Notes: generated by a model not told the origin, from the letters alone. Numbered from the stretch's first letter, positions 21,501-62,117 are shown. The stretch is DNA of 64,000 bases from Eukaryota sp. GEM-RC1 (GCA_040285855.1 JAUFOQ010000004.1:2232001-2296000), one strand, 5' to 3'. Program-made: numbers and translations.

Positions 21501-24500
21501 ATTTAAAGCGACAAGTTCCTGTAATTTAGAATCTATTTCCTCGTCAGTAGAATTCTTCAAAGCTTGGATTTCACTGGACAATTCAGTATTAATTACTTCC
21601 TTCTCTTTTAGTTGAGACTCGAGAGTTAAATTTAAAGCGACAAGTTCCTGTAATTTAGAATCGATTTCCTCGTTATTAGAATTCTTCAAAGCTTGAATTT
21701 CACTGGACAATTCAGTATTAATTATTTCCCTCTCTTTTAGTTGAGATTCGAGAGTTGAAGTCAAAGCGACAAGTTCCTGTAATTTAGAATCTATTTTCTC
21801 GTTAGTAGAATTCTTCAAAGCTTGGATTTCACTGGACAATTCAATACTAATTATTTCCTTCTCTTTTAGTTGAGATTCGAGAGTTGAAGTCAAAGCGACA
21901 AGTTCCTGTAATTTAGAATCTATTTCCTCGTTAGTAGAATTCTTCAAAGCATGGATTTCACTGGACAATTCAGTACTAATTATTTCCTTCTCTTTTAGTT
22001 GAGATTCGAGAGTTGAAGTCAAAGCGACAAGTTCCTGTAATTTAGAATCTATTTCCTCGTTAGTAGAATTCTTCAAAGCTTGGATTTCACTGGACAATTC
22101 AGTATTAATTACTTCCTTCTCTTTTAGTTGAGACTCGAGAGTTGAAGTCAAAGCGACAAGTTCCTGTAATTTAGAATCTATTTCCTCGTTAGTAGAATTC
22201 TTCAAAGCATGGATTTCACTGGACAATTCAGTATTAATTACTTCCTTCTCTTTTAGTTGAGACTCGAGAGTTAAATTTAAAGCGACAAGTTCCTGTAATT
22301 TAGAATCTATTTCCTCGTCAGTAGAATTCTTCAAAGCTTGGATTTCACTGGACAATTCAGTATTAATTACTTCCTTCTCTTTTAGTTGAGACTCGAGAGT
22401 TAAATTTAAAGCGACAAGTTCCTGTAATTTAGAATCGATTTCCTCGTTATTAGAATTCTTCAAAGCTTGAATTTCACTGGACAATTCAGTATTAATTATT
22501 TCCCTCTCTTTTAGTTGAGATTCGAGAGTTGAAGTCAAAGCGACAAGTTCCTGTAATTTAGAATCTATTTTCTCGTTAGTAGAATTCTTCAAAGCTTGGA
22601 TTTCACTGGACAATTCAGTATTAATTACTTCCTTCTCTTTTAGTTGAGACTCGAGAGTTGAAGTCAAAGCGACAAGTTCCTGTAATTTAGAATCTATTTC
22701 CTCGTTAGTAGAATTCTTCAAAGCTTGGATTTCACTGGACAATTCAGTATTAATTACTTCCTTCTCTTTTAGTTGAGACTCGAGAGTTGAAGTCAAAGCG
22801 ACAAGTTCCTGTAATTTAGAATCTATTTCCTCGTTAGTAGAATTCTTCAAAGCATGGATTTCACTGGACAATTCAGTATTAATTACTTCCTTCTCTTTTA
22901 GTTGAGACTCGAGAGTTAAATTTAAAGCGACAAGTTCCTGTAATTTAGAATCTATTTCCTCGTCAGTAGAATTCTTCAAAGCTTGGATTTCACTGGACAA
23001 TTCAGTATTAATTACTTCCTTCTCTTTTAGTTGAGACTCGAGAGTTAAATTTAAAGCGACAAGTTCCTGTAATTTAGAATCTATTTCCTCGTCAGTAGAA
23101 TTCTTCAAAGCTTGGATTTCACTGGACAATTCAGTATTAATTACTTCCTTCTCTTTTAGTTGAGACTCGAGAGTTGAAGTCAAAGCGACAAGTTCCTGTA
23201 ATTTAGAATCTATTTCCTCGTTAGTAGAATTCTTCAAAGCTTGGATTTCACTGGACAATTCAGTATTAATTACTTCCTTCTCTTTTAGTTGAGACTCGAG
23301 AGTTGGAAGTCAAAGCGACAAGTTCCTGTAATTTAGAATCTATTTCCTCGTTAGTAGAATTCTTCAAAGCATGGATTTCACTGGACAATTCAGTATTAAT
23401 TACTTCCTTCTCTTTTAGTTGAGACTCGAGAGTTAAATTTAAAGCGACAAGTTCCTGTAATTTAGAATCTATTTCCTCGTCAGTAGAATTCTTCAAAGCT
23501 TGGATTTCACTGGACAATTCAGTATTAATTACTTCCTTCTCTTTTAGTTGAGACTCGAGAGTTAAATTTAAAGCGACAAGTTCCTGTAATTTAGAATCGA
23601 TTTCCTCGTTATTAGAATTCTTCAAAGCTTGAATTTCACTGGACAATTCAGTATTAATTATTTCCCTCTCTTTTAGTTGAGATTCGAGAGTTGAAGTCAA
23701 AGCGACAAGTTCCTGTAATTTAGAATCTATTTTCTCGTTAGTAGAATTCTTCAAAGCTTGGATTTCACTGGACAATTCAGTATTAATTACTTCCTTCTCT
23801 TTTAGTTGAGACTCGAGAGTTGAAGTCAAAGCGACAAGTTCCTGTAATTTAGAATCTATTTCCTCGTTAGTAGAATTCTTCAAAGCTTGGATTTCACTGG
23901 ACAATTCAGTATTAATTACTTCCTTCTCTTTTAGTTGAGACTCGAGAGTTGAAGTCAAAGCGACAAGTTCCTGTAATTTAGAATCTATTTCCTCGTTAGT
24001 AGAATTCTTCAAAGCATGGATTTCACTGGACAATTCAGTATTAATTACTTCCTTCTCTTTTAGTTGAGACTCGAGAGTTAAATTTAAAGCGACAAGTTCC
24101 TGTAATTTAGAATCTATTTCCTCGTCAGTAGAATTCTTCAAAGCTTGGATTTCACTGGACAATTCAGTATTAATTACTTCCTTCTCTTTTAGTTGAGACT
24201 CGAGAGTTAAATTTAAAGCGACAAGTTCCTGTAATTTAGAATCTATTTCCTCGTCAGTAGAATTCTTCAAAGCTTGGATTTCACTGGACAATTCAGTATT
24301 AATTACTTCCTTCTCTTTTAGTTGAGACTCGAGCGTTGAAGTCAAAGCGACAAGTTCCTGTAATTTAGAATCTATTTCCTCGTTAGTAGAATTCTTCAAA
24401 GCTTGGATTTCACTGGACAATTCAATACTAATTATTTCCTTCTCTTTTAGTTGAGATTCGAGAGTTGAAGTCAAAGCGACAAGTTCCTGTAATTTAGAAT

Positions 24501-26736
24501 CTATTTCCTCGTTAGTAGAATTCTTCAAAGCATGGATTTCACTGGACAATTCAGTACTAATTATTTCCTTCTCTTTTAGTTGAGATTCGAGAGTTGAAGT
24601 CAAAGCGACAAGTTCCTGTAATTTAGAATCTATTTTCTCGTTAGTAGAATTTTTCAAAGCTTGGATTTCACTAGACAATTCAGTATTAATTACTTCCTTC
24701 TCTTTTAGTTGAGATTCGAGAGTTGAAGTCAAAGCGACAAGTTCCTGTAATTTAGAATCTATTTTCTCGTTAGTAGAATTCTTCAAAGCTTGGATTTCAC
24801 TAGACAATTCAGTATTAATTACTTCCTTCTCTTTTAGTTGAGACTCGAGAGTTAAATTTAGAGCGACAAGTTCCTGTAATTTAGAATCGATTTCCTCGTT
24901 ATTAGAATTCTTCAAAGCTTGGATTTCACTGGACAATTCAGTATTAATTATTTCCTTCTTTTTTAGTTGAGACTCGAGAGTTGAAGTCAAAGCGACAAGT
25001 TCCTGTAATTTAGAATCTATTTCCTCGTTAGTAGAATTCTTCAAAGCATGGATTTCACTGGACAATTCAGTACTAATTATTTCCTTCTCTTTTAGTTGAG
25101 ATTCGAGAGTTAAATTTAAAGCGACAAGTTCCTGTAATTTAGAATCGATTTCCTCGTTATTAGAATTCTTCAAAGCTTGGATTTCACTGGACAATTCAGT
25201 ATTAATTATTTCGTTCTTTTTTAGTTGAGACTCGAGAGTTAAATTTAAAGCGACAAGTTCCTGTAATTTAGAATCTATTTCCTCGTCAGTAGAATTCTTC
25301 AAAGCTTGGATTTCACTGGACAATTCAGTATTAATTACTTCCTTCTCTTTTAGTTGAGACTCGAGAGTTGGAAGTCAAAACGACAAGTTCCTGTAATTTA
25401 GAATCTATTTCCTCGTTAGTAGAATTCTTCAAAGCTTGGATTTCACTAGACAATTCAGTATTAATTACTTCCTTCTCTTTCAATTGAAGATGTTTGTCAT
25501 CTTTTAAAGTAGAGATTTGTTTTTTACACTTTTCCAGTTCCATTGTCAACTCTTTGGTCACTTTGTCCTTTTGAAGTAAATCACTAGGGTCTAAAGCAGA
25601 AGTCAGGCCAGGAAACCAAGTTGCTCTACGGTTAGTTGTTTTGGCCTGACCTGTTCCATCAAAAGCGCGCTGATTCAACATCAATTGTACATTTCTTTCT
25701 TTTAGTTCTTCAATTTCTCTTTCGTACTTCTTGAGTAAAGCTCTATCATCTAAAACTTCATTAACTTTAGCCTTATTCTTGACATTCTTTGCTCTAGTAG
25801 CAAACTCTAGAGTTGTTCTACTTACTTCAAAGTGGTGAAAAGCTGGAGTTATACAGCATATGATGGCTGTTCGTGAGTTTCCACCGAGGGCGTTCTTCAA
25901 CAGAAATGTAAGCTTGGAATCTCTGTAATTGATATGAGCACGTGAATTTGACTGTAACTTAGCAATTAAAGTTCCCAAGTAAAGTAAACTTTTGTTAATG
26001 TTCGAAGTTTCCCGTAGTTGAGTTCCTTTTGCTCCTGTTTGAGAGGCTCTTTCAGATCCAGCTAAATCAACCAAATTCAAGTGAGAAATTCTTACAGCAC
26101 CATCACTATCTTTCGAATTTTCCTGGGATTCCAGAATAATTTTAAAAATCGAATGTGATCTCGATGATCGATCATTCATTTTTGTCTGACTGACACGTTT
26201 TCTTTGATTACCCTTTTTAGTTGTTCCAGAGCTTCTTCAACTGACATGACAACGTATTCGAGAGCATTACAGAGATTCACGTTTTCTTGGGTTTCTGTAA
26301 TAAAGGGTTTGTTCTTGGGTTCTAGGAGATCATAGACAACTTCATTGTAGATTTCAATAAATGACACTCTGCAGAGATATCGGCGGTGTGAACAGGCCTG
26401 GATGTGGTCGAAGATCTGGTGTAACGTGAGGTGCACTAGGCCTGGGTCAGACTTGGTACCCATGATTGTGTGTGTTTTGCCTGAGGAAGTCTGTCCGTAA
26501 GCAAAGATTGTTCCATGAAAGCCGTTGATAACATCTAGGACGACGGGAGAGGCAAAAGACGTGTAAAGTTCTGAGTTAGAGCATTGTTGATCGAAGACAT
26601 GATCGAAGTGATATGAATGCTTCAAGTTTGCAGTATAAACAGCATTACTAGTGGTGTGGAAGAGACCGTGGGACTCAATCCCAAAGAGATTCCGAACTCG
26701 GACTGCAACTAGAATGCCGGCGGTTTGTGGCGCCAT
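18508..26736 (-). CDS. CENPE: CENP-E-like kinesin-7 with a tandem-repeat coiled-coil stalk (~2740 aa if 4 indels are corrected)
   Basis: Motor motifs FAYGQTSSGKT, NDRSSRSH, LVDLAGSE, HINYRDSKLT, then the CENP-E-type RRATW motif after the neck. Frameshifts at ~26215, 25370, 23305 and 20700. Confidence 0.85.
18630..25480. repeat. 129-bp coding tandem repeat (43 aa), ~53 copies
   Basis: Unit ELSSEIQALKNSTNEEIDSKLQELVALTSTLESQLKEKEVINT; period 129 (e.g. 18714 to 18843). Confidence 0.97.
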
Positions 26737-26808
26737 TTTATTGTGCAAAATTTGCTTTTCACACTGTTCTTCATTCGTTTTACATCCATTTCAGCCATCG
26801 GTGGCTAC

Positions 26809-35552: not shown

Positions 35553-35981
35553 AAACGATCCCAAGGCCTTCTGAGAGGAATAAGTCCTGATGGTCTTGAA
35601 GTGTTCAAATGCTTAAATGATTCTTCCAATTAGTTGACCTCAAGGTGTTTGATCTATTTGATCGATCTTTTGCCAACATCTTTCCATCTGCACCAGATTA
35701 AGTAGAAGAGTACTACAACAAAGAGTCCTCAATTAGCTGCTGATGAATGATTAAACAAAAGCTCAGTGAACGTCTTTTTCATGTTATGACGTGTGAAACA
35801 AAAATTGTTTTTTAAATCATTGCAATTATTTATTGTTGAGTTGATGATACAGGGATCGAAAAAATAAATTATATTGCAATATGTCACAACGAAATATCTG
35901 CAGCGTAAATCTAACAAGTCTTGTTCATAAGAACACTTTCTTTTACTGCACGTCCACTTCAAGTCCAAAAAAGTTAAAAGG

Positions 35982-38900
35982 TGATACCTTCAGTACAAAG
36001 GGAAAGGGAAAGATATTTATAAATGAATTATAATGACTACGTAACTATACTAATACCTTTGGCTAACATTACCTCTTCTCTTCTTTCGAGCTCCTTGTTC
36101 TCTTAGCCACAGGTGTCTTAACTTTGGAGGGTGACTTAGGACTACTCTTACTACTTGAGGTACGTTTAAGCTTAGGCTTCTTGTTACTAGTCTTGATTCT
36201 ACTATTACTATGAAATAAATCTACATTTTCTAAATTACAAATTCACTATACACCTTGGTGTGTTTGATGTCTTTGATGGGAACTGATGAAGTATCACCAC
36301 CAAACCAAAGGACAGTACAATGTTGAACATCGAATGTATCGAACCTGTCTAGGATCTTAATCACGATGTGTTCTACAGAATCCCCAGAAGCAACTGCTCT
36401 GTGGAGATCATGATCAGCAGGTAGATCTGATTGAAAGATCTTACATTGATGAATGCTAGTCTTACTAACATATCCAGTGATCAGATTCTTTAGTGACACA
36501 GAAGATTTCGAATCAACTGATACAACTAGATAAGGTCCAAAGTAATTACCATGGAGCTTACTAGTTTTGGCGATCTTTAACACAAAATCACCAATCTTAA
36601 ATGATTGACTAGATTCAGATTTCTTCTTGGGCTTGATTGACGTCTGTCGAACCTCTGCCTCTTCTCTCATTTTCGTTAGTCGTTCTAGTTTCATTTTAAT
36701 GTCGTCAATAAACGGAACATTCTTTGTTGATTTCTCAACAGCATCTAGTAAACTACTAGGATCTGCACCAGGACTTAAGTCGCTACCAAACATCAGTTCG
36801 TAGGGAGTATGCCTAGCGTTGATTTGCAACTATACAGTTGGAATGTACGTTGACCAATTGTCTCAAACATTGAAGTCCACAAGGAGACGACGTAGGCTTT
36901 GCAGAACGTCTCTGTGACGTCATTCCACCAGCCCATTACTCTGGGAGAAATGAGGAATCGAACGACTTTCTTCAATCGCCAGTAGGTTACAAACTGCCTC
37001 GAAAATAGCATTGGCAAACTGAGTACCATTATCACTATGGATACACAACAATATTCCGAAAATAACAATCACATCTCACACAAGACAATATGCTGTTTCT
37101 TTACTATTGATATTTCTTCGAAGGGGCACAGAATGGTGTATCTGGTGAAAGAAACTACAAACACCAAGAGGTATTGGTTTCCACTCTGATCTTTTGGAAG
37201 TCAACCAATTGTATCGACGATTAGTCTAGCAAAAGGTCTATCAGCCCATAGAGAATCCGTCGATTCAATAATCTTTTCAGGAACAGGTGCCGTTTTCTGA
37301 CACGTGTTAGTGTCATGACTCATCAGGACCTATTTGTATAATAAATTCACTTTTCTCTATTCATATGACTAAGACCAACAATAATTATTGTGGCCTCTGC
37401 AAAGAGTTACAATGTATGTGTACTCCGGAGAACTTCACTCCTGGAAACCAAACTAACCCAAACCCTAGTTCCGTTCTAGGTGAAGATTCCAGTTCCGTCC
37501 TGGCTTCTTCTGAGTCTTCCACCGCGAAGGAACTTGGTCCAGATGGTCTCCCCCTGGGATGACACTGTTGACTATGACATTGTTTCGGATGAGGAACCTT
37601 CTTCTAATGGAACTTCGAATGAGAAACCATTCTCTATCGAAAACCCAAATGAGGATCCATCCCCCAATACTACTATAAACGAGGAACTTTCCTCCAATGT
37701 TGAAAACGAGGAACTTTCCTCCAATGTTGAAAACGAGGAACCATCCTCCAATGTTGAAAAACTTCACCAGATTCACAATCCTATGTCCACTAAAGGAACT
37801 GAATGCTCATGAGACAGCATATTCGTTAGTGTGTAAGGTTTGCGCTATCTTCGGCATTCCAGACCTCATTCACAGTGACAATGGCAAAGAATTTGCTAAT
37901 CACGTGTTCAATGACGTCTGCAATCAATTTGACATCACAACTAATAAATCTATACCTAGTTTCTCTCCTAGCAACGGTTTAGTTGAACGTCGACACAGAG
38001 ACATCCTACAAGCTTTACGAAAGATGCTCATAGACTTTAATGACTATGACAACTGGAGTAAATACATCCCACTAGTACAACTGCTGGTAAACACTACGAA
38101 GAGTAGGGTAACCGGCTTTACACCGTACGAATTGATGTTTGGATCTAACACCAACCCTGGTAGTGATCCAAGTAAAATCATCTCTTGTCTCACTCAGAAC
38201 AAGATTTCAGAAGATTCCTTCCTAGCTGATTACCAATCAAAATTAACAAGAATTTTGAAAAAACGGGAAGAAGCAGAAACCACCCAATCATCTATCAAAT
38301 CTTCCATTACTACGGTCGATACACCCTCGCTATTCGCTATCGGTGACCTAGCACTACGAAGTAACAAAGCTGCTAAGAAGCTTCATGGCAAACAAGAGGG
38401 ACCGTACCTCGTCATTGACATACCTTCTAAAAGCTCACTTGAACTGCAGAACTTTGTCACCGGACATCGCTTCCGCTCCAGCATTCATCTATGCACCAAG
38501 TACCTTTCCGACAAACCCTCCTCTGATGAGTTCCACAAAGCTGTAGCCTCTTGTGATTCTGAAGAGATGGTCATCATCGAGATCCTTGATCAACGTGATT
38601 CACCTACAGGTCCCATATGTTCCGTCGTATGGTTTGACGGCGATACTACTGAGGAACCTCTAAGTCTGGTTAAGAACACTAAGGCTTACTCAAGTTTTAT
38701 TAAACTAAATCCTCACGCCAAACCCAAATCTAAACCCAATACTAAATCTAGAAGTACGCGTAATAGAAAAGCGATCCCTAGTAACACTCCTAATTCCGTC
38801 ATTCTCACTACACCACCTGCTAAGAGGACTAGGTCCTCGAAAAGGGGGAAGAAGTAATGTTAGTGTCATGACTCATCAGGACCTATTTGTATAATAAATT

Positions 38901-41900
38901 CACTTTTCTCTATTCATATGACTAAGACCAACACACGGGGGCATTACTGAACATGTTTTAACATGTCAGCTTTCATACTTGACCAAAAGTAACCACTATT
39001 GCACAGTGTGTCCAAACTTTGTTTCTTGCTTGGATGTCCTGACTGGACTAATCCATGCAGCATATAAAGAACCTTCTTTATCAAGCTAGATGGAATCAAT
39101 CTCTTGTTCGTGGAGTTTATGTGTACATTACTCTTTGTACACAAGGTCGATCCAGTGAACAGTTGATCTCATTGTTCTATCGCTTTGCTTTGTTCCAACC
39201 TGATGGTTGATAGCCAAGAATCAAATAAAGGGATTTATTGTCGTATGAGAGGTCACGAAGACACTTGATAGCCAGCACGTTGGTGTTACGTGGAGGCATC
39301 TCAAAAATAATTTGCGTCATCAATGAGTAAGCCTTCATGAGAAAGGGTTAAATCATATTTGATGGAAAAATTTGAGATCATCAAAGATTTGATTGTTTCA
39401 ACTGGGCGTCGGTCAATAACACGTGTTAACATGTCAGCCCATTGATTGTTTGTACCAGCTACAAGCATTATCTCAAAATCAAACTCAGATAAAATGGGAA
39501 TCCATCGTTTCAATGCGATTCTTCTCTGGAGTAGATATTAGATAGGCAAGGTTCCTATGATCATTCGAGATCGTAAAGTGCCTACTTAACAGGAAACCTT
39601 CTAAACTAGATTCGGTCAGAATCAAGAGAATGGTAAACAGCTCTTTCTGGATAGCTGCCCATTCTGTTGACTGTCATTGAGTAAACGGCTACAAAAAGAT
39701 ACAGGTCTAACTCTACGTTCATCTAACGGAGTACCTGGAGGAGCTGGGGGATTTTCTTCCTGCCAGATCACACCACCAACAGCAATGTTGGATGTATCAG
39801 TTGACATGATAATGTTCCTATCAGTATCAAGTAAGTTTAATGCCATGTGATTTAGGATCTCAGACTTCAATTGTGCGAGTAAAGCATCATGGTCTTTTAT
39901 TCAAAGAATCTTCTTTGATTTTCCACGAGTGAGTTCATTGATTGTAGAAGTCAAATTTAAATAATTCGGAATCCATTCACGAACATGATTTAACGCATCA
40001 AGTAAACTTCTTACCTCATGTAAAGATGAAGGAGCTGGAAGCTCGATCAAAGCCGAAACTCTGTTCTCATTAATGCTACGGGTTTTGTTGCAACAATGTC
40101 TGTCCAGAATCTTATTAAGATGTTTAGAAGTGGTGAACCTACACTTCCATAATCCAATCCGTACTCTAAAACGTTCTGCTCGTTTCAGTACAAGATTTAT
40201 TCTTGAAATAAACACTTCGAAAGTATTGCCTACAACAAATATACCTATATATAAATGAAAACACCTTCGACATGGAATATTTCCATCACGATGTTATGGA
40301 TAATGGTTGGTACCGTCATCAATCCAAAACATGCTCGTTTGAAGCTAATAGACATTCCAGGTATAGACACACTGGTCTTATCGTCATCTTCTTCAGCTAC
40401 GTTTAGCTGCCAGAATGTTTTAGGAAGGTCGAGTGTTCCGATGCAATTTGCTTTGGAAAGGAACTCTAGAATATCACAGAACCGAAGTACGTTTGGTTTC
40501 ACCGGTCTGGTATTAGCTTTAATCCCGTCTGGTACACCGAAGTCACCAGTTAAACGAGGCTTCCTTATGTGGTCTTTGTACACAACCAACATAATGGGAT
40601 TACTGAACTTACCAGTCGATGGTACGGTCCATCCTGTCGTATAAGTTCTTTCAAAAACAAAATTTCGGCTATACGCTGTTCCTCAGGGTTAAGCCTTTAA
40701 GGAGGACGAAATACAGTGACATTTTCATCGTAAAGGAAATGGTCATCGGTGGACAAATCGATACCATATGAGTGAATCTGCTCGGAGAACACTTGTTTGT
40801 ATTTACTGAGTAGGCTCAGAAGCTCCTATGTCTGTTAGGATCATCCAATTCTATCGTCAACCAGAGTCAATGGTTTCTTCAAACAAACTGATGTCAGTTT
40901 GAGTGCTACCGTACTAATCAATATTAAATTTATTGTTGAGAAATTTGATTGAACACTATTGATTGATTGTAATGGTGATTTCATTCTACCATCAAAACAC
41001 TCTCTACATTGAGAAAAATGCGATGCTCTTTATCTAATCTAATGACTAAACCATCATACGTTAGTAACTCCAGTTCATCTTGCAAATCTCTGCCAATCAG
41101 AAGTTGTTTGGATCCAGGTACAACTGAGAGAGAAGTGTTTTCTGTGAATCTGTTTGGCCAAGCTACCAACGTTGAACGTCAGAACACCTACTGCACTACC
41201 TAAGGATGTTGCACGAATATTATTCGCAGAGATGTAGTCAATACAACTGTCAATCGTTGCCATCTCACAGTGACAAATCAAATTGAGCATGTAACTGCAG
41301 AATCAATCTCACCAATCACTGGCACATTGTTAAACAACAATCGAATACACAAGGTACCGTTATCCTTTGACTCGATCCCTAAGTTCTGGTTGAGACTCCG
41401 AATTGTTTCAACAGATGACGTACTTCTACCCTTGCTTGAATGTGTGTTCAAAGCAGCCAATGGGTTCATGTACTTTGCTGGTTTAGTGTAGTTGTGTTTA
41501 CCTATAATATTTGAAAAATAAAATTGGTGTATTGAAACGACAAAAATCACTACGACTATCACCAGACCTACGTTTTGTGGTCTTTTCTTTCTTTTTACGA
41601 TTGAGCACCATATTTCTAAGGTGGCAATCAGTTGCAGAATGTCCAAATTTGCCACAGTTAACACGATTAAGAGTGGTCTTAGCGTCAAAGGGAGTTCAGA
41701 GGTCACTTGAAACAAGGACCTTGATTTCTATATGGAGCGTTTCCACGATTTCAGGAGAAGCTTCTCAATTGAAGACCTCAAAAGGATGGGCAAATGGAAC
41801 TACATCATTCAATTGCATGTAAGTGATCCAAATCCCTTCAAGTTCGTTACAAAAAACTGTTGGAGGAGGCTATCATCCGACTTCAGTTTCTGTTTCCCAA

Positions 41901-43841
41901 TGTGACGATTGGTTGAGTGTCGACCTGATTTGCCAGAGTTGAATCAATCGTTCATCTATGGACAAAATTTCGAATGACTTCACTTGTCAAAGTGACTCAA
42001 GGTCTTCTCAAAACCAAAAACCCAGTATAGTTCAAAACTTGGTTTTCCTGTGAGTTGATATCAACGAAAGTCAGTAGACACTGATCTCTCTAAATCAAAC
42101 ACACGCATCTGAGGTTTCGCACAAACTCTCAGGTAATACAATCCAGTGAATCTTCTGTGTGAACTCTACATTTTCTCTTTTCGTCAAGCAATGTTTTCAT
42201 GAGACAACTACGTTGGAAAATTCTAGGACTTGTACAAAATCATTCACTACACTCATGAAAGTGAGCAACAATAAACATTGACCAAACAATATCATTACAT
42301 CAAGATATTTGGTTTATTTTAAAAAATCTATATGTCAACAAGACAACGGTTCGACTCCCATCGACATCCAAAATTTCACTCAATTGGGGAAATGGGGAAC
42401 CTATGTACTAAATTTGCACTGATATCGTCAGTGTGGCCTTACTGTTGGTCGAGAGCTTCATTGAAAGGAAGTTCGGTAGACAGAGGCTTTCTCAGTCTTG
42501 GACATTAGGGTTTCATCTCATCATTGTTTGTTAATGAGGAACTACTGAAGACACAAATTTTTGTCTAGAGTAGGGTTCTAATCTACATCTTGTAAGGAAG
42601 AGAACTCTTCTGGACTGCCTGAAATAGGTCTTATGTCATCTACGTTTCTGTTTTGAAGACAGAAGTCTACAAAGACGAAACGATTTCAATCTGAAACAAC
42701 TATGTGGACATGCCTATTTTTCGTATAGGGCTTATAGTCTTACCAGAACGCAAAAATAAAGTGAGTACAACTCCAACTAAATCGTTCATGGGGTTCACAT
42801 AGTAGACAAACTCAACTCTTAATGCCGTCTAACGAAATGGAGGGACTTACATCTTCCTTGTACAGGTGAAACATCAGATATAGACAGTTATTTATAACAA
42901 AACACTGAAAAGCTCCTGCTATCTCCAGAATAAAGTGCAAAAGAAACATTATCTGTTTATAAGCCTGCTACAAGGGACTTGCTTGATGGTTCATTAACGA
43001 ATGACACAGTTTCAAGACATAACATCAATCCAAACAACACAAATGTTGATCAATAATCTTGAGAATTCCTCAGAGTGTGACTGTGAGTGAATTCTTGAAG
43101 AATGATTGAGTTCTTCTATCAATGATAGGCATCCATGCTCAGATGGGAAAGTTGTTGACTTGGACCTACATTGAAGTATCCTTTACGAATAAATCGATGA
43201 TCTTATTAGTCATTTCAGTTGACCTCACATAAGGAACTGGTACTCTGTTCAATACAGGTTCTTTATTTGAAAACAACAACAGTACTACTGATACTATTGC
43301 TTAAAAAAACAGGTTCAAGGTTACTTTCTGCTGACAAAGTGGTAGCGTAACACTATTGATAACCGCTAGGAGGTCTAAACTTGTTCAATAAAGCCTCAAT
43401 GTCTATTACTGAGGCAATTAGACCTCCTTGACTGCCGCCACCCGTACTGGATGGGGGTCTTACGTCCTTGACTGCCGCCTTCCACAGAGGATGGGGGTCT
43501 TACGTCCTTGTAGAAGCCGTCACCCGTATTGGATGGGGGTCTGTCTCCCGCATCACCTTCGCCTTCCAAATTGGCTGAGGGAGATGAGCTTCCGCCTCCT
43601 TTTGAAGGAGAGGGACTACGAATGCCTGAAACAGGACTTATATCGGTAAGAGTAGAATCTTATGAGCTGGACTCATAGAATCTACGATTAGACGAGTCTT
43701 CACTAGAGGACTCGGGTTAGCATGGTTTCACCTTTTACCATGGACAATAATTATTGATACCTTCAGTACAAAGGGAAAGGGAAAGATATTTATAAATGAA
43801 TTATAATGACTACGTAACTATACTAATACCTTTGGCTAACA
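35982..43841 (-). mobile_element. Ty3/gypsy chromovirus-like LTR retrotransposon, family 2, internally decayed
   Basis: Identical 87-bp LTRs at 35982-36068 and 43755-43841 (TGTTAG...TATCA on the minus strand) with TSD AAGG. Fragments of protease (IDSAVTCS), RT (KPRLTGDF, LDLPKTFWQ, FIYI), RNase H (TDTSNIAVGG), integrase (GHP, TPYELMFG, GPY) and a chromodomain-like tail. Confidence 0.92.
37305..38933 (+). mobile_element. Internally deleted (non-autonomous) family-1 LTR element nested in the family-2 integrase
   Basis: 76-bp LTRs at 37305-37380 and 38858-38933, TSD CACG. The gag N-terminus is joined at ~37760 directly to the integrase core. Confidence 0.95.
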
Positions 43842-44456
43842 AAGGGGACCTACAGTTCGGTGTCAAACCCCTATTATCATCACTCAACATCAACATACAC
43901 ATACTTCCAAGTAATAAGATTTGTGGAAACTGGTACATGTGTTTATTTACGTATCACTATAGACACGATCCAATCATAGTGCACCCATCAATACAATTTA
44001 TTTTTTTCGATCCCTGGCCAGAGTCTATACCAGGAAGCGTGAAGTGTTGAAACATAGTAGGTGGAGCTGTAATGAACGTGGTATACGTACATAACGAATC
44101 GCTAAAAAGTTCAAACACGTGTGTACATCACATCATAGGAACCGATGAAGTTAACAAGTATTGATATCAACAAAAGAGCAAAGTAAAAAGATCAGTTGTG
44201 AAGTCTGAGCGTACGTTATGATCAGAAGAGGTGTCAAGCTTTACTGTACGTTAAGGAGTAAAATGAATGTTCTTATGCATGTATCTGAAAGGGAAAATAA
44301 GCGTTGGTTTTCAGTCAGCAAGTTTCAGCAAAACATCTCAATTTTCTACATTTTCACAGACCAAATTTTACCCAAAATATTGCAATATATTGCAATTATT
44401 TATTGCAATCATCACATTTTCCAATATATTTATTGCAATGATCACAATTTCCAATA

Positions 44457-45095: not shown

Positions 45096-45227
45096 TATAT
45101 TTATTGTACATTTTTTATGCTAGAAATATATTGCAATATATTTTTTCGATCCCTGTATTGATACGGCAATAATTGATTTTTCTTTGTTCAGAAGAGATAT
45201 ACGGTATCTGATACTTTTCTTACAACA

Positions 45228-47714
45228 ATGATTCACTTGAATTGCTCAATCTGCGACTCAATCTTTGAAGATGCATGTACACTACCCTGTGGACACTGCT
45301 TCTGTCTCTCATGTATAATTCGATGGCTAAAACACAACCCAAATTGTCAGATCTGTGGTCAGGACGCCACGGTCAAAGATATTGTTTCCTGCTACGCTCT
45401 CCGTAAAGCTGTTGATAGTCTTGCTAGCAATCCCGCTGTTTTACCTGAGATCCCTTCTGAAGACCTCAGTTTCAATCTCAACGATGAATTGGGTAGTGGA
45501 ATCAGCGGAACTGTTTATCTATGTGAATGGGCTGACACAAGTGTTGCCTTGAAACTCGTCCGGAAAGCTGATCAGAAAGAAGCAAGACTCTTGCAAGAAG
45601 TCTCCCACATGGCCTCTCTGTCTCATCCTTTTGTCCTTCGAGTGTTTGGTATAACCAGACTTCCGAAGCACATTGGTATCTTGATGGAACTTGGTTCTGG
45701 ACATCTGCAAGTTCCAACATCTCTTTCTCCCACCACCCTTGCTCAAGCGATTGAGATATGTACCGCTGTGAAATACTTGCATTCCAAGGGAATTGTCCAC
45801 CATGACATTAAGCCCCAAAATGTCATTATAGTGAACTCACAGGTTAAGCTCGCCGATTTTGGTTCTTCACGGACTATGTACAACTACACATCTACTCTTG
45901 AAGTCACTCCAAAGTATACTCCGTTTGAAGCTTTCAAGAAGATCTATGGACCAGCTTTTGACGTTTATAGTCTGGGAATATTGTTTTATGAAATGTTTGC
46001 CAATAGACTTGCATTTGAGGATATGCTTGTTTTTGAAGTAGTTATGGCCAAACAAAATGAACATATATTGAGCTTTCCTGAAGATTTTCCCAAGCCAATT
46101 TCATCTTTGATTAACAAATGTCTTTCAGTTAATCCTAGTGAAAGACCTTCTATTAATGATGTACTGAAAGAGTTGAAAGAAATTCAAGGAACCATTGAAG
46201 TATTTGAGTTGAACAATTCACTAGCAAATGATCTTCAAATAGAGAAAAGTAATGATGAATTAGCTTTTGAAGGGTACCAAGAAGCTGCAGAACGAGGTGA
46301 TCCTGAAGCCATGGTTAATCTGGGTAACTGTTTTCTTGATGGTATTGGGGTAAACAAGAACGACAGACAAGCTGTGTACTGGTTCTTGGAAGCTATTTCT
46401 AAGGGAAACTCTAACGCAAGAACACGCTTAGGGAAAACTATTCAGTGGTGTCAACAGCACGCAGAATTAGGTGATGAACTTGCAATGACTGCGATTGGTG
46501 TTTGTTTCTATGATGGACAAGGTATCGAAAAAGACCAATCAAAAGCTGTATACTGGTATCAAAAAGCTGCAGATTTGGGTCACTCTGGTGCCATGGGTTA
46601 TCTTGGTGTTTGTTACCACAATGGACAAGGAATCGAAAAAGACCACTCAAAAGCTGTATACTGGTATCAAAAGGCTGCAGATTTGGGTCACTCTGGTGCC
46701 ATGCGTAATCTTGGTGTTTGTTACGATAATGGACAAGGAATTGAAAAAGACCACTCAAAAGCTGTATACTGGTATCAAAAGGCTGCAGATTTGGGTCACT
46801 CTGGTGCCATGTATAATATTGCTGTTTGTTACAAGAATGGACAGGGAATCGAAAAAGACCAATCAAAAGCGGTATTCTGGGTTGAAAAGGCCGCAGATTT
46901 GGGTCACTATGGTGCCATGCATGCTCTTGGTTGTTGTTACCACAATGGACAAGGAATCGAAGAAGACCACTCAAAAGCTGTATACTGGTATCAAAAGGCT
47001 GCTGATTTGGGTCACTCTGGTGCCATGCGTAATATTGCTGTTTGCTACAAGAATGGACAGGGAATCGAAAAAGACCAATCAAAAGCGGTATTCTGGGTTG
47101 AAAAGGCCGCAGATTTGGGTAACTCTGGTGCCATGTGTAATCTTGGTGATTGTTACTATGATGGACAAGGAATCGAAGAAGACCACTCCAAAGCTGTATA
47201 CTGGTATCAGAAAGCTGCAGATTTGGGTAACTCTGGTGCCATGGTTTGTCTTGGTGATTGTTACTTTGTTGGTGAAGGAATCGAACAAGACGACTCAAAA
47301 GCTGTGTACTGGTATCAGAAAGCTGCAGATTTGGGTAACTCTGGTGCCATGCGTCATCTTGGTGATTGTTACTATGATGGACAAGGAATCGAAGAAGACC
47401 ACTCAAAAGTTGTATACTGGTATCAAAAGGCCGCAGATTTGGGTAACTCTGGTGCCATGCATGCTCTTGGTGATTGTTTCTATGATGGACAAGGAATCGA
47501 AGAAGACCACTCAAAAGCTGTATACTGGTATCAGAAAGCTGCAGATTTGGGTAACTCTGGTGCCATGGTTTGTCTTGGTGATTGTTACTTTGTTGGTGAA
47601 GGAATCGAACAAGACGACTCAAAAGCTGTGTACTGGTATCAGAAAGCTGCAGATTTGGGTAACTCTGACGCGGCACAGCAACTAATTTATCTTTATGGTC
47701 CTGATTCTGATTAA
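45228..47714 (+). CDS. RING finger, Ser/Thr (TKL-like) kinase and Sel1-like repeat protein
   Basis: C3HC4 RING CSIC..LPCGHCFCLSC..CQIC; LGSGISG, VALK, HHDIKPQN, DFG, DVYSLG; ~13 36-aa Sel1 repeats. Confidence 0.93.
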   Translation: MIHLNCSICDSIFEDACTLPCGHCFCLSCIIRWLKHNPNCQICGQDATVKDIVSCYALRKAVDSLASNPAVLPEIPSEDLSFNLNDELGSGISGTVYLCEWADTSVALKLVRKADQKEARLLQEVSHMASLSHPFVLRVFGITRLPKHIGILMELGSGHLQVPTSLSPTTLAQAIEICTAVKYLHSKGIVHHDIKPQNVIIVNSQVKLADFGSSRTMYNYTSTLEVTPKYTPFEAFKKIYGPAFDVYSLGILFYEMFANRLAFEDMLVFEVVMAKQNEHILSFPEDFPKPISSLINKCLSVNPSERPSINDVLKELKEIQGTIEVFELNNSLANDLQIEKSNDELAFEGYQEAAERGDPEAMVNLGNCFLDGIGVNKNDRQAVYWFLEAISKGNSNARTRLGKTIQWCQQHAELGDELAMTAIGVCFYDGQGIEKDQSKAVYWYQKAADLGHSGAMGYLGVCYHNGQGIEKDHSKAVYWYQKAADLGHSGAMRNLGVCYDNGQGIEKDHSKAVYWYQKAADLGHSGAMYNIAVCYKNGQGIEKDQSKAVFWVEKAADLGHYGAMHALGCCYHNGQGIEEDHSKAVYWYQKAADLGHSGAMRNIAVCYKNGQGIEKDQSKAVFWVEKAADLGNSGAMCNLGDCYYDGQGIEEDHSKAVYWYQKAADLGNSGAMVCLGDCYFVGEGIEQDDSKAVYWYQKAADLGNSGAMRHLGDCYYDGQGIEEDHSKVVYWYQKAADLGNSGAMHALGDCFYDGQGIEEDHSKAVYWYQKAADLGNSGAMVCLGDCYFVGEGIEQDDSKAVYWYQKAADLGNSDAAQQLIYLYGPDSD
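46480..47670. repeat. 108-bp coding tandem repeat (Sel1-like), ~11 near-identical copies
   Basis: Unit AMxxLGxCYxxGQGIExDxSKAVYWYQKAADLG(H/N)SG. Confidence 0.95.
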
Positions 47715-49462: not shown

Positions 49463-50133
49463 CATAGTACGGAAAACACCGGGCGTGTTTGAACACGGTG
49501 TTGAGTGTGAACGTGTTCTGAACGTGTTGTATTTTTGTGAAGGGTGAGTAGCGGTGTTCTTAGTTGTTGATTGTTTCCAAGCTATCGTATTAAATTAGTT
49601 TCAAATACATCATTCTTTACTGAATAAAAGGTGGTGAGAACAAATACAAGCTCTTTGGATCTGGAATTGATAGTCACTGATTGAACGTGAATATAAGTTA
49701 TCCACTACAGTAGTTAGCGTTTCAAGAAATTTGAACTATACACTTCACAATTAGTGGGTAACTTCATCTGAGTCTCCAAATTGTTCAAGATGAAACGGGC
49801 TTCAATTTACAGCACCACTGAAACTGATTTTTTGACTTGGGAGCAATGTGGGTACTCTTGAACTGTGTCTTATACATAAATACCTTTTCTTTAGACTGAC
49901 AATGTATCGGAAATATACGTGACTAGTAATGATACGATTGTAAATGTTGTGTCACGAATGCACATAGAAGGGATGTATTCGATCACTGAAGGTCAAACAC
50001 TTTTGAAGAGAGGATTGGATGAAAAGTTTGGGTGGTTGGGTGGCGGTGTTTTAGCGGTGTTCAACACGGTGTTGAGTGTGAACGTGTTCTGAACGTGTTG
50101 TAACTGGAAGAACACGTGTTTTTCCGTACTATG
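49463..50133. mobile_element. Non-autonomous hAT element
   Basis: TIRs CATAGTACGGAAAA / TTTTCCGTACTATG, perfect TSD CTTCAAAC, and a ~40-bp direct repeat near both ends. Confidence 0.9.
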
Positions 50134-50331: not shown

Positions 50332-50760
50332 TGTTAGTTAAGATAGCGATACCTAGTAGATATCTTCACATCTGATGACGTATCACTTAGTCCTAAGGAC
50401 TTCTCTATACAACAAACTCTTCTTTCTTCTTTCTTATCAACGTTGACCTTACGGCAACAATAATTATTGGCCTATGACTGTCTCATCTGCTAACCCCAGA
50501 AAGTTCCGTGATCTTGCTTTCTTTGTCCCGCCAAAGCTTGCAACCTTCACACGGAACCAGATTCAAACCTTCCTCGAGGAAGTTGATATGTATATGTCCA
50601 TCACTGACAAAAAACATCAGGTAACCCTTCGGCTTATGCTGGATCCGGTTTTGCTCAGGTCGCTCCATCTCTCCCTGACCTTGAAGCTTCTGATGAGGCT
50701 CTCATTGTGTATCTCAAACGGCAGATACAATTCTCCACTTACGAGGAGTTCAACTTGTGC
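50332..50760 (+). mobile_element. 5' remnant of a third LTR family: ~128-bp LTR, palindrome, gag-like start
   Basis: TGTTAG...GCAACA (50332-50459), then ATAATTATTG and ATG 50474 (PPKLATF..IQTFLEEVDMY). No second LTR is visible. Confidence 0.6.
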
Positions 50761-51515: not shown

Positions 51516-51820
51516 CAGTGAACGCTAACACGTAACACGCGTGTTAACACGTGTTAGGAATTTTGGCTGATTTCTAACACGCAAATATCGTTTACTATTT
51601 TCGGTCTAAATGATGTGAAAATGTCTTTTGTTGCTATAAGAATGAAAGACACCTTTTTAGAAGTTCCCTACAGGGATGTAGAGTATCGTAGTGATGAAAG
51701 TGTAGAAGAAATGAACTATTTAACGTTGAACCAGAAACCAGGAAAAATTCTTGTATCGCAAACACGTAACACGTCCTAACACGTGTTAGATTCGATTTTT
51801 GAACGTGTTAGCGTTCACTG
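51516..51820. mobile_element. hAT-type MITE
   Basis: TIRs CAGTGAACGCTAACACGT / ACGTGTTAGCGTTCACTG, perfect TSD ACAACATT. Confidence 0.92.
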
Positions 51821-51861
51821 ACAACATTTTGTATGTCAATTAAATGAGGAAAATTTCTGTT

Positions 51862-56866: not shown

Positions 56867-56939
56867 GGCTATTGGCTATTGTTAGTGTCATGACTCATCA
56901 GGACCTATTTGTATAATAAATTCACTTTTCTCTATTCAT

Positions 56940-59900
56940 ATGACTAAGACCAACAATAATTATTGTGGCCTCTGCAAAGAGTTGCAATGTATGTGTACTC
57001 CGGAGAACTTCACTCCTGGAAACCAAACTAACCCAAACCCTAGTTCCGTTCTAGGTGAAGATTCCAGTTCCGCCCTGGCTTCTTCCAAGTCTTCCACCGT
57101 GAAGGAACTTGGCACAGATGGACTCCCTTGGGATGACACTGTGGACTATGACATTGTTTCGGATGAAGAACCATCTTCTAATGGAACTTCGAATGAGAAA
57201 CCATTCTCTATCGAAAACCCAAATGAGGATCCATCCCCCAATACAACTATAAACGAGGAACCTTCCTCCAATATTGACGAAAACGAGGAACCATCCTCCA
57301 ATATTGATGAAAACGAGGAACCATCCTCCAATTTTGACGAAAACGAGGAACCATCCTCCAAGGTTAATGAAAACGAGGAACCATCCTCCAACAGAACACC
57401 TGCTTCTGAGTCAAATCCACCAGTTGGGTGGACCTATCGACCTTCGGTAACTCCTCCGCCTATCCCAATAGTACAGAGATCTACACCTCCTATTAGGACA
57501 CCGGAACCCTTTATTCCGAAATTACCCCCTACACGTCTCGCCTCCCTCTACCTAGAACTCTGGCCCAAATGGAAAGACTCCAAGGATTTACACTTCTTCT
57601 TTCAACAGTTCTCGAACACTATTACCAATGGTGCAAGAAATGGACAAACGGTCCCACACATGTTCAACTTGAACAAAAGAACGTGGAAATTCTCATGCAC
57701 AGAGACAAGGATTCCTGGAACGACATCCCAAAAGCAATCCAACGCTCAGCATCCAAAATTTTCGCCCCAGGAAATTTGAAGTCTAAATCATCTTCAAAGA
57801 ACCCTCACAATGCAGCCCCTCCTTTCAAAAAGAAGCATCGCTCAAACTCATCTGATAGACCTCCTAAAGATGATAACCGCTGTAGCTTCTGCGACTCCCC
57901 GGATCACAAGATAAACCTTTGTAATCATCCTGACTGTCGTAGAAGCGAGCTCCCCGCGGATCAACGTCTTCCACGATCTGAGGCAAAGAAACCTCCCACT
58001 CGTAGTAATAGTCATAGTTCGCGTAAACAAAATAAACATAGTAAGTATTTCGTGCAATCGATAAACACTATTCACAAAGATAACACATCATCGTCGGATT
58101 CACATAATCCATACATAAACCCACTCCACAACATCAGTAATTCGAGTGGTACGAACTCACTAAGCCTGAATTCAATATTCAGCATAATCGATCACCAGGA
58201 TCCACCACCATTCCTCAGCTGCAGTCTGACCATCAATGGTGTTTCGATTCAGGGTCTTTGGGACAGTGGAGCATCAATGTCCGTAATCACACGAGACCTG
58301 GTCGATAGATGTTCAATGAAGTTCATTAACAAGAACGTACCATTCACATCTGCAAACAACGTCAGATCTCACTCACTGGGTAGCGCCCAAGGGATCTTGA
58401 CCTTCAAGTTCAGTAAGGTGACACACCTAACATCTGTGACGAAGACTTTACCTATCATCCCTGGATCCAACAAATGTTTGTTAGGTATTGATCTCATGAA
58501 GCAGTTAGGTTTACTGACTGAAGAGGGACTAATCATCCCGGTTCAACAGACTATGTTAGCTCATAGCAACGACGAGTCAGAGTTCGACTCAAACATATCT
58601 ATGCCCAATAGCCTTTCTATTATAGACAATATAGATTTCAATAAATTTGTTTATGATTCCGGCTGTTCAATCAAATTAGATGACGATGATAGAACCAATC
58701 GTTTACTGAACCTCCTTAGCGAGTTCTCAACTATCTTCGATTCCGTTCCTCACAAAGATGGCATCAATTGTCCACCGATGACAATTGACTTCTACGACGA
58801 AGAGTCCACGGTGAAACGAAAACCTCGGAGGCTTAATCCTGTCAAACAAAGGATAGCCGAAGAAACCTTTCATGAACTAGTACGTTTGGGATACGCTGAG
58901 TATACTACACCCAACGGAAAATTCAGCTCCCCGGTAGTACTTGTGGTATACCCCGATCATCGTAAGCCTAGACTTACGGGTGACTTCAGTGGTACTGGAG
59001 GAGTCAACGAACTTACTAAACCTGTCCAACCGAATCTACCGAGAATCGCAGACATACAGGAATTCCTGAGTGAAGCTAACTACATAGCCACTCTCGACCT
59101 GTCAAAAGCATTTTGGCAACTGAATCTCGCAGATCACGAACGCGACAAAACAACTCTAGTTATCCATGGCCTAGCCATTCGATTTAAACGAGCTTGTTTT
59201 GGTCTAAAGAACGTGCCTGCAATCTTTCAAAACTTGATGATGGATATTTTCGACCACGAAGGTATATTCATCTACATCGATGACATCATCATAGTCGCCA
59301 AAACTTTTGATGAATACTTATCTAGAATAAAATTCGTTCTTGAGAGAGCTCAACTCTATAGAGTCAACCTTGGCTTACACAAGTGCAAGTTCATAACAAA
59401 GAATCATCCTATAACTATCTTAGGTTGCGAATACATCGACAACACTCGTCGAATCGATTCAAAACGTGTAGAAGCTCTGGTAAACATACCAACACCGACC
59501 ACCATCAAAGAAGTTCGAAGTTTCGTCGGTTCTATCAACTACATTAAAGATTTCATAGCAGATGCATCGGACCTACTAGCTCCTATAATAGCCCTAGTAA
59601 AGAACAAAGCACGAACAGTTCATTGGACACCTCAACTTCAATCAAATTTTGATGAAATCAAAAGAGGATAATCAATCACATGCCACTATGTCTACCAGAC
59701 AAAGACAGACGCATACTGATCAGCGCAGACGCTAGCGATATCGCCGTAGGTGGTGTCGTATGGCTAGAATGCACCCCTCATTCACCTGAGGGAACTCCAT
59801 TGAACGACCGCAAAGTAGAACCACTAGCATTCTACAGCAAACTACTCACTGACTCTCAACAGAACTGGGCCACAATTCAAAAGGAATTGTACGCCATTCT

Positions 59901-61831
59901 CCTGATTTTAACAGAATCTCAACTGTCATCATACCTTATCAGCAGGGGAATTAACGATCTTCACAGATCATAAAAACCTCGCTTACTTAATCTCAGCACC
60001 CGAGAAGAATAGGATGGTCAAACGATGGATCCCTATTCTCAGTGAATACCTATTCACCATAGTCCACACCAGTGGCGAAGACAACCATTGGGCTGACATG
60101 ATGTCACGCAATGTTATCAAAGACGCAACAACTGAGTCTATAAACAACATAGTCACATATTGCCCAGAGCATTTGTTCTCTATAACCGATAGCCGATGTC
60201 CTACTGATGAGGATACGGAATATCAAACTTTATCAACAGAGTCAATCGACATGATTGACGATGCCCTGATCAACAAATCGAAGTTATTCGACGCTTGGCT
60301 CTCGAAAGTACGCTCTACACAAGTAGAAGCCATCAAAAATAACGACCCATTGTTCCAACACCCGTCTACTTGGTTCAATGAAGAGTTCCAGCTATACATG
60401 AATAGCAACAACAAGATCTTGATACCAAGTGCCTTGGTGAAAACCACCTTGAACCACTTACACGGTTTTCCACATGCAGGTCACCCTAGCATTAAAGATA
60501 GCATTGATCGGCTAAAATCTAGTGACTACTTCTGGCCCAGCATGATCAACGACATGAAAACTCACTGCAAGCAATGTCCAGCTTGTCAAAAGACAGCTCC
60601 CCTTGCCAAAACAACTATCAAATCTTCAGGTAATTTATGGTCCGACAAACCATTTGCAAAGATGAACGTCGACACAATAGGACCACTTCCCACTGACACA
60701 TCGGGAAACATTTACTTACTAGTGTTCATAGATTCCTTCACCAGATTCACAATCCTATGTCCACTAAAGGAACTGAATGCTCATGAGACAGCATATTCGT
60801 TAGTGTGTAACGTTTGTGCCATCTTCGGCATTCCAGATCTCATTCATAGTGACAATGGCAAAGAATTTGCTAATCACGTTTTCAATGACGTCTGTAAGCA
60901 ATTTGACATCACAACTAATAAATCTATACCTAGTTTCTCTCCTAGCAACGGTTTAGTTGAACGTCGACACAGAGACATTCTACAAGCTTTACGAAAGATG
61001 CTCATAGACTTCAATGACTATGACAACTGGAGTAAATACATCCCACTAGTACAACTGCTGGTAAACACTACGAAGAGTAGAGTAACCGGCTTTACACCGT
61101 ACGAACTGATGTTTGGATCTAACACCAACCCTGGTAGTGATCCAAGTAAAATCATCTTTGCCTCACTCAGAACAAGATTTCAGAAGATTCCTTTCTAGCT
61201 GATTACCAATCAAAATTAACAAGAATTTTGGAAAAAACGGGAAGAAGCAGAAACCACCCAATCATCTATCAAATCTTCCATTACTACGGTTGATACTCCC
61301 TCGCTATTTGCTATCGGTGACCTAGTACTACGAATTAACAAAGCAGCTAAGAAGCTTCATGGCAAACAAGAGGGACCGTACCTCGTCACTGATATACCTT
61401 CCAAAAGCTCACTTGAACTGCAGAACTTTGTCACCGGACATCGTTTCCGCTCCAGCATTCATCTATGCACCAAGTACCTTTCCGACAAACCCTCCTCCGA
61501 TGAGTTCCACAAAGCAGTAGCTTCTTGTGACTCTGAAGAGATGGTCATCATCGAGATCCTTGATCAACGTGATTCACCTACAGGTCCCATATGTTCCGTC
61601 GTATGGTTTGACGGCGACACTACTGAGGAACCCCTGAGTCTGGTTGAGAACACTAGGGCTTACTCAAGTTTTATTAAACTAAATCCTCACGCCAAACCCA
61701 AATCTAAACCCAAAACTAAATCTAGAAGTACGCGTAATAGACAAGCGATCCCTAGTAACACTCCTGATTCCGTCATTCTCACTACTCCACCTGCTAAGAG
61801 GACTAGGTCCTCGAAAAAGGGGAAGAAGTAA
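56940..61831 (+). CDS. Gag-Pol polyprotein (zinc knuckle, PR, RT, RNase H, IN, chromodomain-like) with ~5 small indels
   Basis: CSFCDSPDHKINLC; LWDSGAS; LDLSKAFWQ, FGLKNVP, YIDD; ADASD, KELYA, TDHKNL; GHP..CPACQ, VDTIG, SDNG, NGLVER, GPY; IIEILDQR..VVWFDG.TTEEP. Confidence 0.92.
57205..57392 (+). repeat. 33-bp coding repeat in gag (ENEEPSSNID-like)
   Basis: AACGAGGAACCATCCTCCA recurs every 33 bp. The nested copy has a 30-bp version at 37678-37760. Confidence 0.85.
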
Positions 61832-62117
61832 TGTTAGTGTCATGACTCATCAGGACCTATTTGTATAATAAATTCACTTTTCTCTATTCATATGACTAAG
61901 ACCAACACTATTTAATCAATGTCTACATGAACCTTCAAAGTTGTTTGAAAATCACAACATAAGTATTGCAATAAATCTTTCGGTATCCCTGTTATATCAT
62001 GGTCGAGTGCACTTGAATTTTGGAAACGTGACGTACTACAATACCATCATTACGATGAATATAACGGGAAGCAGGAATCATGGACTTTTTCAATTCTATT
62101 TTTACTCCTAATTCCTC

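Follow-up and report, generated by a model that had tools for sequence, protein, structure and literature searches.

A palindrome replacing the primer-binding site (PBS) has already been published for the fungal GalEa elements of the Ty1/copia group, in which it is named the Conserved Hairpin Site CHSeq1 (Donnart et al. 2017, PMC5445492). The available text of that paper gives the palindrome as CTGATCAGT or CTAATTAGT plus the LTR's A, compares the site to a dimer initiation site, and leaves the priming mechanism unsettled. We found one further paper that names the GalEa site, in its accessible part, in connection with bivalve TRIMs (PMC6934838). The Tf1/sushi elements (Tf1, Tf2, Tj1, Tosmo, and Tcn1) take their primer from the 5' end of the same transcript, which is folded on a non-palindromic PBS (available portions of PMC4600332, PMC6317226, and bioRxiv 2022.12.06.519325). 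Palindrome-mediated RNA dimers have been demonstrated in vitro for Ty3 (PMC11381356), and in both Ty3 and Ty1 the short 5' palindromes that link genomic RNAs lie apart from the PBS, with priming by tRNAiMet (PMC11381356 and PMC4974528, as far as their accessible text goes). Finally, the dictyostelid Skipper chromoviruses are protist gypsy elements with neither a TGG nor an LTR-internal complement, for which the authors propose a new type of self-priming (PMC5006619, available part).

Here we describe a 64,000-nucleotide stretch of DNA from Eukaryota sp. GEM-RC1 (hereafter the window) that contains LTR retrotransposons of three Ty3/gypsy families with a palindrome at the PBS position. Like GalEa CHSeq1, the site comes with no tRNA PBS, follows straight after the 5' LTR, includes the LTR's last base, and finds no complement in the LTR. 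However, GalEa elements are copia and those of the window are gypsy, and the GalEa palindrome is 10 bp and takes in A only, whereas the palindromes here are 12 to 14 bp and take in CA. The conserved downstream inverse copy of GalEa (CHSeq2, 12-41 bp away, with an A/A mismatch) is not conserved here either; CHSeq2-like downstream pairing is partial, confined to families 1 and 3, and differs in sequence between them. The elements share with Tf1/sushi the gypsy domain order, a chromodomain in the wider lineage and, as we propose below, priming without a tRNA by an element RNA that needs to be cut. Their short flanking pairs look like the helices at the sides of the Tf1 'pretzel' (bioRxiv 2022.12.06.519325, available part), but their LTRs hold no complement of the kind that Tf1/sushi transcripts fold on. 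With Skipper they share the missing TGG and LTR complement, although the PBS position is a polypyrimidine tract there and a palindrome here, and with Ty3 and Ty1 they would share the linking of genomic RNAs by a short 5' palindrome. Judged from its sequence, the site acts like a tRNA-independent priming site, and it is neither a Tf1-type self-primer nor a GalEa element. New with respect to the published work covered here are this gypsy lineage, the evidence from paired changes, and a leader motif, CTAACCC.

Our literature search returned no gypsy element with a palindromic PBS, within a coverage that excluded Repbase and most subscription journals. Repbase reportedly describes gypsy elements in which a 12-bp palindrome at the LTR junction serves for self-priming; a search for their name found nothing, and given this coverage an earlier description in gypsy elements may exist. 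Troyka, considered as a palindrome-primed precedent, was set aside, as the text of PMC12440569 has no occurrence of 'palindrome', 'PBS', 'primer', or 'priming'; in its available part Troyka has CG..CG termini and 3-bp target duplications, whereas the elements here have TG..CA and 4 bp. The word 'palindrome' is likewise absent from the Helenus paper (PMC10886601), and the available part of PMC3212995 holds nothing on a palindromic PBS.

The features of the four elements are collected in Table 1. Copy a of family 1 (56880-61907) is a full-length Ty3/gypsy element with protease, RT, RNase H, and integrase. Its Pfam domains follow one another in that order along 57497-61198, which is the order of Ty3/gypsy and not of Ty1/copia, and in the PDB the clade profile matches Ty3 Gag-Pol best (E 1e-71). 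The RNase H is broken by frameshifts upstream of the ORF at 59912-61198, and the frameshifts of this copy may be mutations or assembly errors. All three complete elements (1a, 1b, and family 2) have TG..CA LTRs, a polypurine tract, and 4-bp target duplications, and their LTR pairs are identical (76, 76, and 87 bp, respectively); the identical LTR pairs and the target duplications mark them as young insertions. Pol segments of family 2 share 36-63% identity with those of family 1. The polypurine tracts of families 1 and 2 end in GTAA before the 3' LTR (61829-61831, 38855-38857, and 36069-36071 on the minus strand), and comparison of 10667-10928 with 35868-35981 plus 43841-44015 points to a second, empty copy of the repeat that family 2 entered.

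Table 1. Positions, within the window, of the junction palindromes, leader motifs, and elements
Feature	Position	Strand	Remarks
Family 1 copy a, 5' LTR, 76 bp, TG..CA, with Gag-opening ATG at 56940	56880-56955	+	identical to 61832-61907
Family 1 copy a, 14-bp palindrome ACAATAATTATTGT across LTR end, primer-binding position	56953-56966		
Family 1 copy a, Gag 5' part, MTKTNNNYC across palindrome	56940-57779	+	frameshifted vs next ORF
Family 1 copy a, CTAACCC	57028-57034	+	
Family 1 copy a, Gag 3' part, aspartic protease, reverse transcriptase	57497-59671	+	Pfam Asp_protease_2 E 2.5e-6, RVT_1 E 6.8e-16
Family 1 copy a, RNase H end and integrase (H2C2 zinc finger, rve)	59912-61198	+	Pfam
Family 1 copy a, integrase C-terminal tail, GPY motif, degenerate chromo-like stretch	61220-61831	+	ends in polypurine tract
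Family 1 copy a, 3' LTR, not followed by the palindrome	61832-61907	+	target duplication CTAT
Family 1 copy b, with internal deletion, inside family 2	37305-38933	+	LTRs 37305-37380, 38858-38933; target duplication CACG
Family 1 copy b, 14-bp palindrome, 5' LTR end	37378-37391		
Family 1 copy b, CTAACCC	37453-37459	+	
Family 2 element, many stops and frameshifts	35982-43841	-	5' LTR 43755-43841, 3' LTR 35982-36068; target duplication CCTT
Family 2, 12-bp palindrome CAATAATTATTG, 5' LTR end	43745-43756		
Family 2, CTAACCC	43714-43720	-	
Family 3, putative 5' LTR, 128 bp, TGTTAG..CA	50332-50459	+	no partner LTR in window
Family 3, 12-bp palindrome CAATAATTATTG, LTR end	50458-50469		
Family 3, CTAACCC	50490-50496	+	
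Family 3, Gag N-terminal fragment, element truncated	50474-50680	+	

Family 3 had been counted as an LTR family in the preliminary description, a status that rests on its TGTTAG..CA ends and the Gag-like ORF that follows them; these stand, and the window offers no second LTR to pair with the first. The ORF ranked first among 1890 stop-free stretches against a Gag N-terminus profile (E 1.8e-5; 15 members, chosen by eye for this Gag type), and BLAST of family 3 against the collected proteins gave no match at E 0.01. Only in family 1 does the palindrome motif lie in the Gag frame. The LTR of family 2 has no ATG and the frame of its motif stops 3 codons past the motif, and the start codon of family 3, at 50474, lies downstream of the motif, so that in both families the motif is probably untranslated. 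An earlier argument from a Trp in place of Cys in family 3 therefore does not apply.

Several other features were noted in the window. In the interval 18511-26800 a 129-base unit is repeated in tandem about 53 or more times, and on the minus strand the repeats carry the frame of a long coiled-coil-like repeat protein, broken by frameshifts. An intronless ORF at 45177-47714(+) combines a RING finger, a protein kinase, and 12 Sel1 repeats. Three dispersed repeat pairs of 440-730 bases and 82-94% identity (17645-18376/51863-52593, 27142-27642/55214-55714, and 32591-33029/35116-35552) are possibly other mobile elements; the ORFs tested in them gave no Pfam match, and an Hsp70 gene lies between the two members of the last pair. 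Palindromes of the AACACGTGTT type cluster close to the truncated element of family 3 (51520-51830 and 50060-50130) and are possibly the ends of a DNA transposon or MITE.

A scan of both strands of the window placed ATAATTATTG directly after the LTR-terminal CA at 56956(+), 37381(+), 50460(+), and 43754(-), which is offset 0 at 4/4 5' LTRs from all three families, and after none of the three 3' LTRs. Together with the LTR-terminal CA it forms the palindrome CAATAATTATTG, perfect over 14 bp in both copies of family 1 and over 12 bp in families 2 and 3. The nine strand-matches to ATAATTATTG in the window are the four palindromic junctions, counted on both strands, and one non-palindromic site at 11781-11790; shuffled sequence held 0.40 matches on average, and 0 of 100 shuffles reached nine. 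Perfect 12-bp palindromes number 41 in the window, with CAATAATTATTG among them solely at the four junctions, and, with CA given, a 12-bp palindrome would arise by chance at 3e-4 per site. When the junctions of the three families are aligned, CA and the next 10 bases are identical, compared with 5 of 23 other upstream columns and 0 of 20 downstream columns, and conservation stops with the pairing partner of the LTR's C, which is the edge of the palindrome. The junction palindrome is real and non-random, and it is probably clade-wide.

None of the four junctions has a TGG-initiated PBS within 0-5 nt of the LTR. Tf1-type self-priming is called when at least 10 bases of the 5' LTR are complementary to the PBS (PMC6317226, available part), and the longest Watson-Crick complement of the site within the LTRs is 4-6 nt, or 7-8 nt with G-U pairs, so that no such self-primer was found. 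An 11-base complement in 'family 2' proved to be an artifact, as it belongs to the nested copy of family 1 on the other strand. These results bear out the preliminary description on the motif's place immediately after each 5' LTR and its absence after the 3' LTRs, on both lengths of the palindrome, on the lack of TGG, and on the lack of a Tf1-type complement in the LTRs.

To place the elements, we compared their RT/RNase H sequences with those of relatives. The top 60 of 80 matches carry the names Eukaryota sp. GEM-RC1, TZLM1-RC, or TZLM3-RCL, and GEM-RC1 contributes partial copies that are up to 97% identical. We take TZLM1-RC to be S. litria. GEM-RC and TZLM3-RCL are free-living Skoliomonas from soda lakes (bioRxiv 2023.05.03.539051, available part), and the host is likely a skoliomonad metamonad. 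The tree was built from 42 matches, two of which were left out as too short, and its 40 midpoint-rooted rows include three plant gypsy rows and no Tf1/sushi row. The window's elements, their skoliomonad relatives, and two further rows form one clade of 23 rows (support 100/100), which nests in a larger element group apart from the plant, insect, and spider gypsy rows. The integrase tails in the window gave no Pfam match, though the tail aligns with those of relatives, and 4 of the 14 wider-clade proteins scanned passed the Chromo cut-off (P0204, P0206, P0291, and P0296); a single-sequence structure model of the chromo-like tail was too poor to inform (pLDDT 46.5). DNA of the relatives was found in 0 of 17 candidate stretches from viral contigs and 0 of 21 candidates from prokaryote genomes, and the one match among 28 from metagenomes was short, due to chance, and located in an ORF that belongs to no retroelement. 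When viral contigs were scanned by pattern, 94 loci emerged, and none of the 95 loci examined matched the elements' proteins.

In family 1 the Gag frame opens within the LTR, which allows the junction to be followed in the proteins of relatives. From 196 skoliomonad proteins we retained the 64 N-termini not contained in another protein, which fell into 25 groups. With the window's own family left out, residues 2-15 of 24 groups were searched for peptides encodable by a CA-n4-n4'-TG palindrome. Six of the 24 groups fit the 12-mer, all at residues 9-11, against an expectation of 1.12 (binomial p 6.6e-4 at a background of 0.34% per position; six was reached in 5 of 20,000 shuffles), in a test whose residue range was set after the first hits had been spotted by eye and whose groups are related by descent, with four peptide types among those that fit. 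Five later residue ranges gave 2, 2, 3, 0, and 0 groups, and the direct-repeat, reversed, and complement controls gave 3, 0, and 2. The fitting peptides are TIIIG/SIIIG, TVITG, TVITV, SIRIG (two groups), and QYIL. This evidence is protein only, and each peptide also allows many non-palindromic encodings. The six groups are separate tips of the RT/RNase H tree. It appears that in several families Gag starts inside the 5' LTR and reads through the primer site, in three frames (56940-56955 in the window; P0006, P0049, P0056, P0058, P0070, and P0128), although P0128 is a 2540-residue gene model that may be chimeric.

TIIIG fits the window's own 12-mer in a frame other than that of family 1's NNNYC, and the remaining peptides need different palindromes; the relatives use two frames besides that of family 1, which makes three in all. 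A change from Ile to Val accompanies one from Ile to Thr, as paired base changes predict, and the end residues within one family vary only as CA and TG permit (T/S and G/D). In three groups the middle Ile sets a self-complementary center, which a duplex needs and a hairpin loop does not, and this counts for a duplex. No palindrome-compatible peptide was found in the other 18 of 24 groups. In some of these the sequence begins at a Met that lies downstream of the site, or inside the protein, and P0034 aligns with the Met of family 3, which is such a downstream start; the large P0096 family is an unexplained miss. Residues 8-12 of P0084 (ATRIG) are one base change from a palindrome-compatible peptide and are possibly a decayed copy. 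The other frames and the paired changes make it likely that the site is self-complementary rather than invariant, and it looks to be selected for self-complementarity and not for one sequence or one peptide. The palindrome had been called invariant, a term that no longer fits when relatives appear to use others. A constraint at the nucleotide level, also put forward earlier, draws support from relatives' peptides that fit the same or different palindromes in three frames, but its original argument from identical codons fails for families 2 and 3.

A likely self-complementary site also argues against a single host-RNA primer. Such a primer could be the 5' half of tRNA-Ile(AAU), cut after position 40 and pairing with AATTATTG, two bases after the LTR, in which case the palindrome would be coincidental. 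The window itself contains no tRNA gene and no Rfam match. In all three families this register has a purine at position 37 and a G-U pair at U33, and there are reports of half-tRNA-Ile priming in Bianca copia (PMC6317226) and of priming by the anticodon loop in fungal copia and Helenus (PMC10886601, both in their available parts). However, the pairing common to all families would be just 8 bases, position 32 does not fit in families 1 and 2, and in family 1 the stem does not fit either; all generic tRNA checks are passed in family 3, and by it alone when the site is scored as a half-tRNA type (Ty5, copia, Bianca). A plant survey also confines half-tRNA primers to copia (available part of PMC6317226), and this primer accounts neither for the palindrome and the conservation of the site's first two bases nor for the differing palindromes inferred for relatives. 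We regard it as improbable.

Folding computations were used to ask what the palindrome may do as RNA. The 12-mer has a monomer fold of 0.0 kcal/mol and a self-duplex of -9.6 kcal/mol, and the duplex is extended by short flanking pairs that differ by family (CC..GG, GG..CC, and GGC..GCC). Duplexes of 32-mers ranged from -14.6 to -20.8 kcal/mol and were matched by 2, 8, 60, and 4 of 300 shuffles. In co-folds, 12/12 bases of the site pair across strands in 6 of 8 fragments; the two family 3 fragments gave 8 and 0, the zero being the long one. A two-base break of the site clearly weakened dimer binding in family 2 only (-11.0 to -6.2), with slight weakening in the short fragments of families 1 and 3 and none in the long ones. 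Folding thus permits a dimer in these models and does not prove it. Pairing of the leader with the PPT/U3 end (cyclization) was not above that of random stretches of the window, of which 358, 325, and 36 of 500 were as good.

The same computations bear on two rival explanations. In the first, an RNA cut just 3' of the palindrome folds into a hairpin (4-bp stem, AAUU loop, extended by the flanking pairs) and primes on its own U5, with a second RNA as full-length template. A monomer hairpin with flanking pairs does form at the junction in all three families, and this explanation accounts for the LTR's CA being part of the palindrome; however, at -1.3 to -4.4 kcal/mol the hairpin is weak, and its loop need not be self-complementary, yet the center is so in the window and in the relatives' peptides. 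We consider such a snap-back unlikely. About equally unlikely, in our view, is that the palindrome serves dimerization or packaging only, while the minus strand starts otherwise, from a protein primer, de novo, or from a GalEa-like hairpin with a downstream partner. Ty1 and Ty3 do dimerize through 5' palindromes separate from the PBS (PMC4974528 and PMC11381356, available parts), and in monomer folds of families 1 and 3 the 3' half of the site pairs with a downstream stretch in a competing hairpin. Moreover, copies 1a and 1b differ at a single position in their first 190 bases, and that difference turns a U-G pair of the downstream stem into U-A. Against this, the downstream hairpins differ by family and in family 1 are no better than shuffles (z 0.5 and -0.2), and a site for dimerization alone gives no reason for offset 0 and a terminal CA in every family.

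A second conserved element of the leaders is CTAACCC, which was noticed post hoc. Four of its five occurrences in the window (both strands) lie in the four leaders, 31-73 bases after the LTR. The motif resembles a spliceosomal branch site. It is complementary both to GTTAG, with which the LTR starts, and to TTAGGG, the telomere repeat that has been reported for GEM-RC (bioRxiv 2023.05.03.539051, available part). The base before it varies with LTR base 7, with pairing still possible in all three families. A second conserved motif suggests nearby cis elements bound by protein, as would be expected if the palindrome acted on DNA, in plus-strand transfer, in recognition of the ends by integrase, or as the binding site of a dimeric host protein, with something else as primer. 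A protein site, however, would keep one sequence and not covary as the relatives' peptides suggest, and a DNA-stage role leaves priming unexplained; we give this reading little credence.

In LTR replication the 3' end of the primer sets the right LTR boundary, so that the primer must pair at this position. The only full complement of the site within the element is another copy of the junction itself, and the junction of a second RNA is thus the sole full complement available, which favors a head-to-head duplex. Priming from the poly(A) end was rejected, as the first base of the site is A and requires U. We therefore favor a model in which two genomic RNAs pair at the palindrome and one of them, cut as in Tf1, primes the other, a proposal that the sequence evidence leaves about evenly balanced between right and wrong. 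Two packaged RNAs would pair head-to-head through the junction palindrome, and one would be cleaved within the duplex, about 10 bases into the palindrome, giving a new 3' end that would prime minus-strand DNA on the partner RNA. By analogy with Tf1, the nuclease may be the element's own RNase H. In Tf1, RNase H is reported to play this part (Levin 1996). The unpaired R-U5 tail of the primer is identical to the template just copied. The tail would therefore anneal to the newly made DNA, and RNase H would trim it back until a primer of about 10-12 nt remained. Each pair would lose one of its two RNAs in this way.

If so, and here our confidence falls a little short of even, these elements would follow a third route of LTR reverse transcription, trans-priming within an RNA dimer, in which the dimer link is the primer duplex. 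Such priming may involve neither a tRNA nor a fold-back of the 5' end, with one genome cut and spent as primer, which we put forward just as tentatively. To our knowledge, no element is known to prime by this trans route.

Among LTR elements that lack a tRNA site, the start of priming has been settled for the Tf1 type alone, and the elements described here are a compact test case, with LTRs of 76-128 bp, young copies with identical LTRs, and alternative palindromes inferred in sister families. Trans-priming predicts element RNA ending in the palindrome on strong-stop DNA, and rescue in trans. If the model is true, priming would be freed from the host tRNA and from silencing by tRNA fragments, and dimerization would become obligatory for replication, with priming tied to dimerization of the genome. 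Families of this kind would escape annotation tools that require a tRNA PBS. Trans-priming may then have arisen separately in the copia elements of the GalEa type and in the gypsy elements of metamonads.
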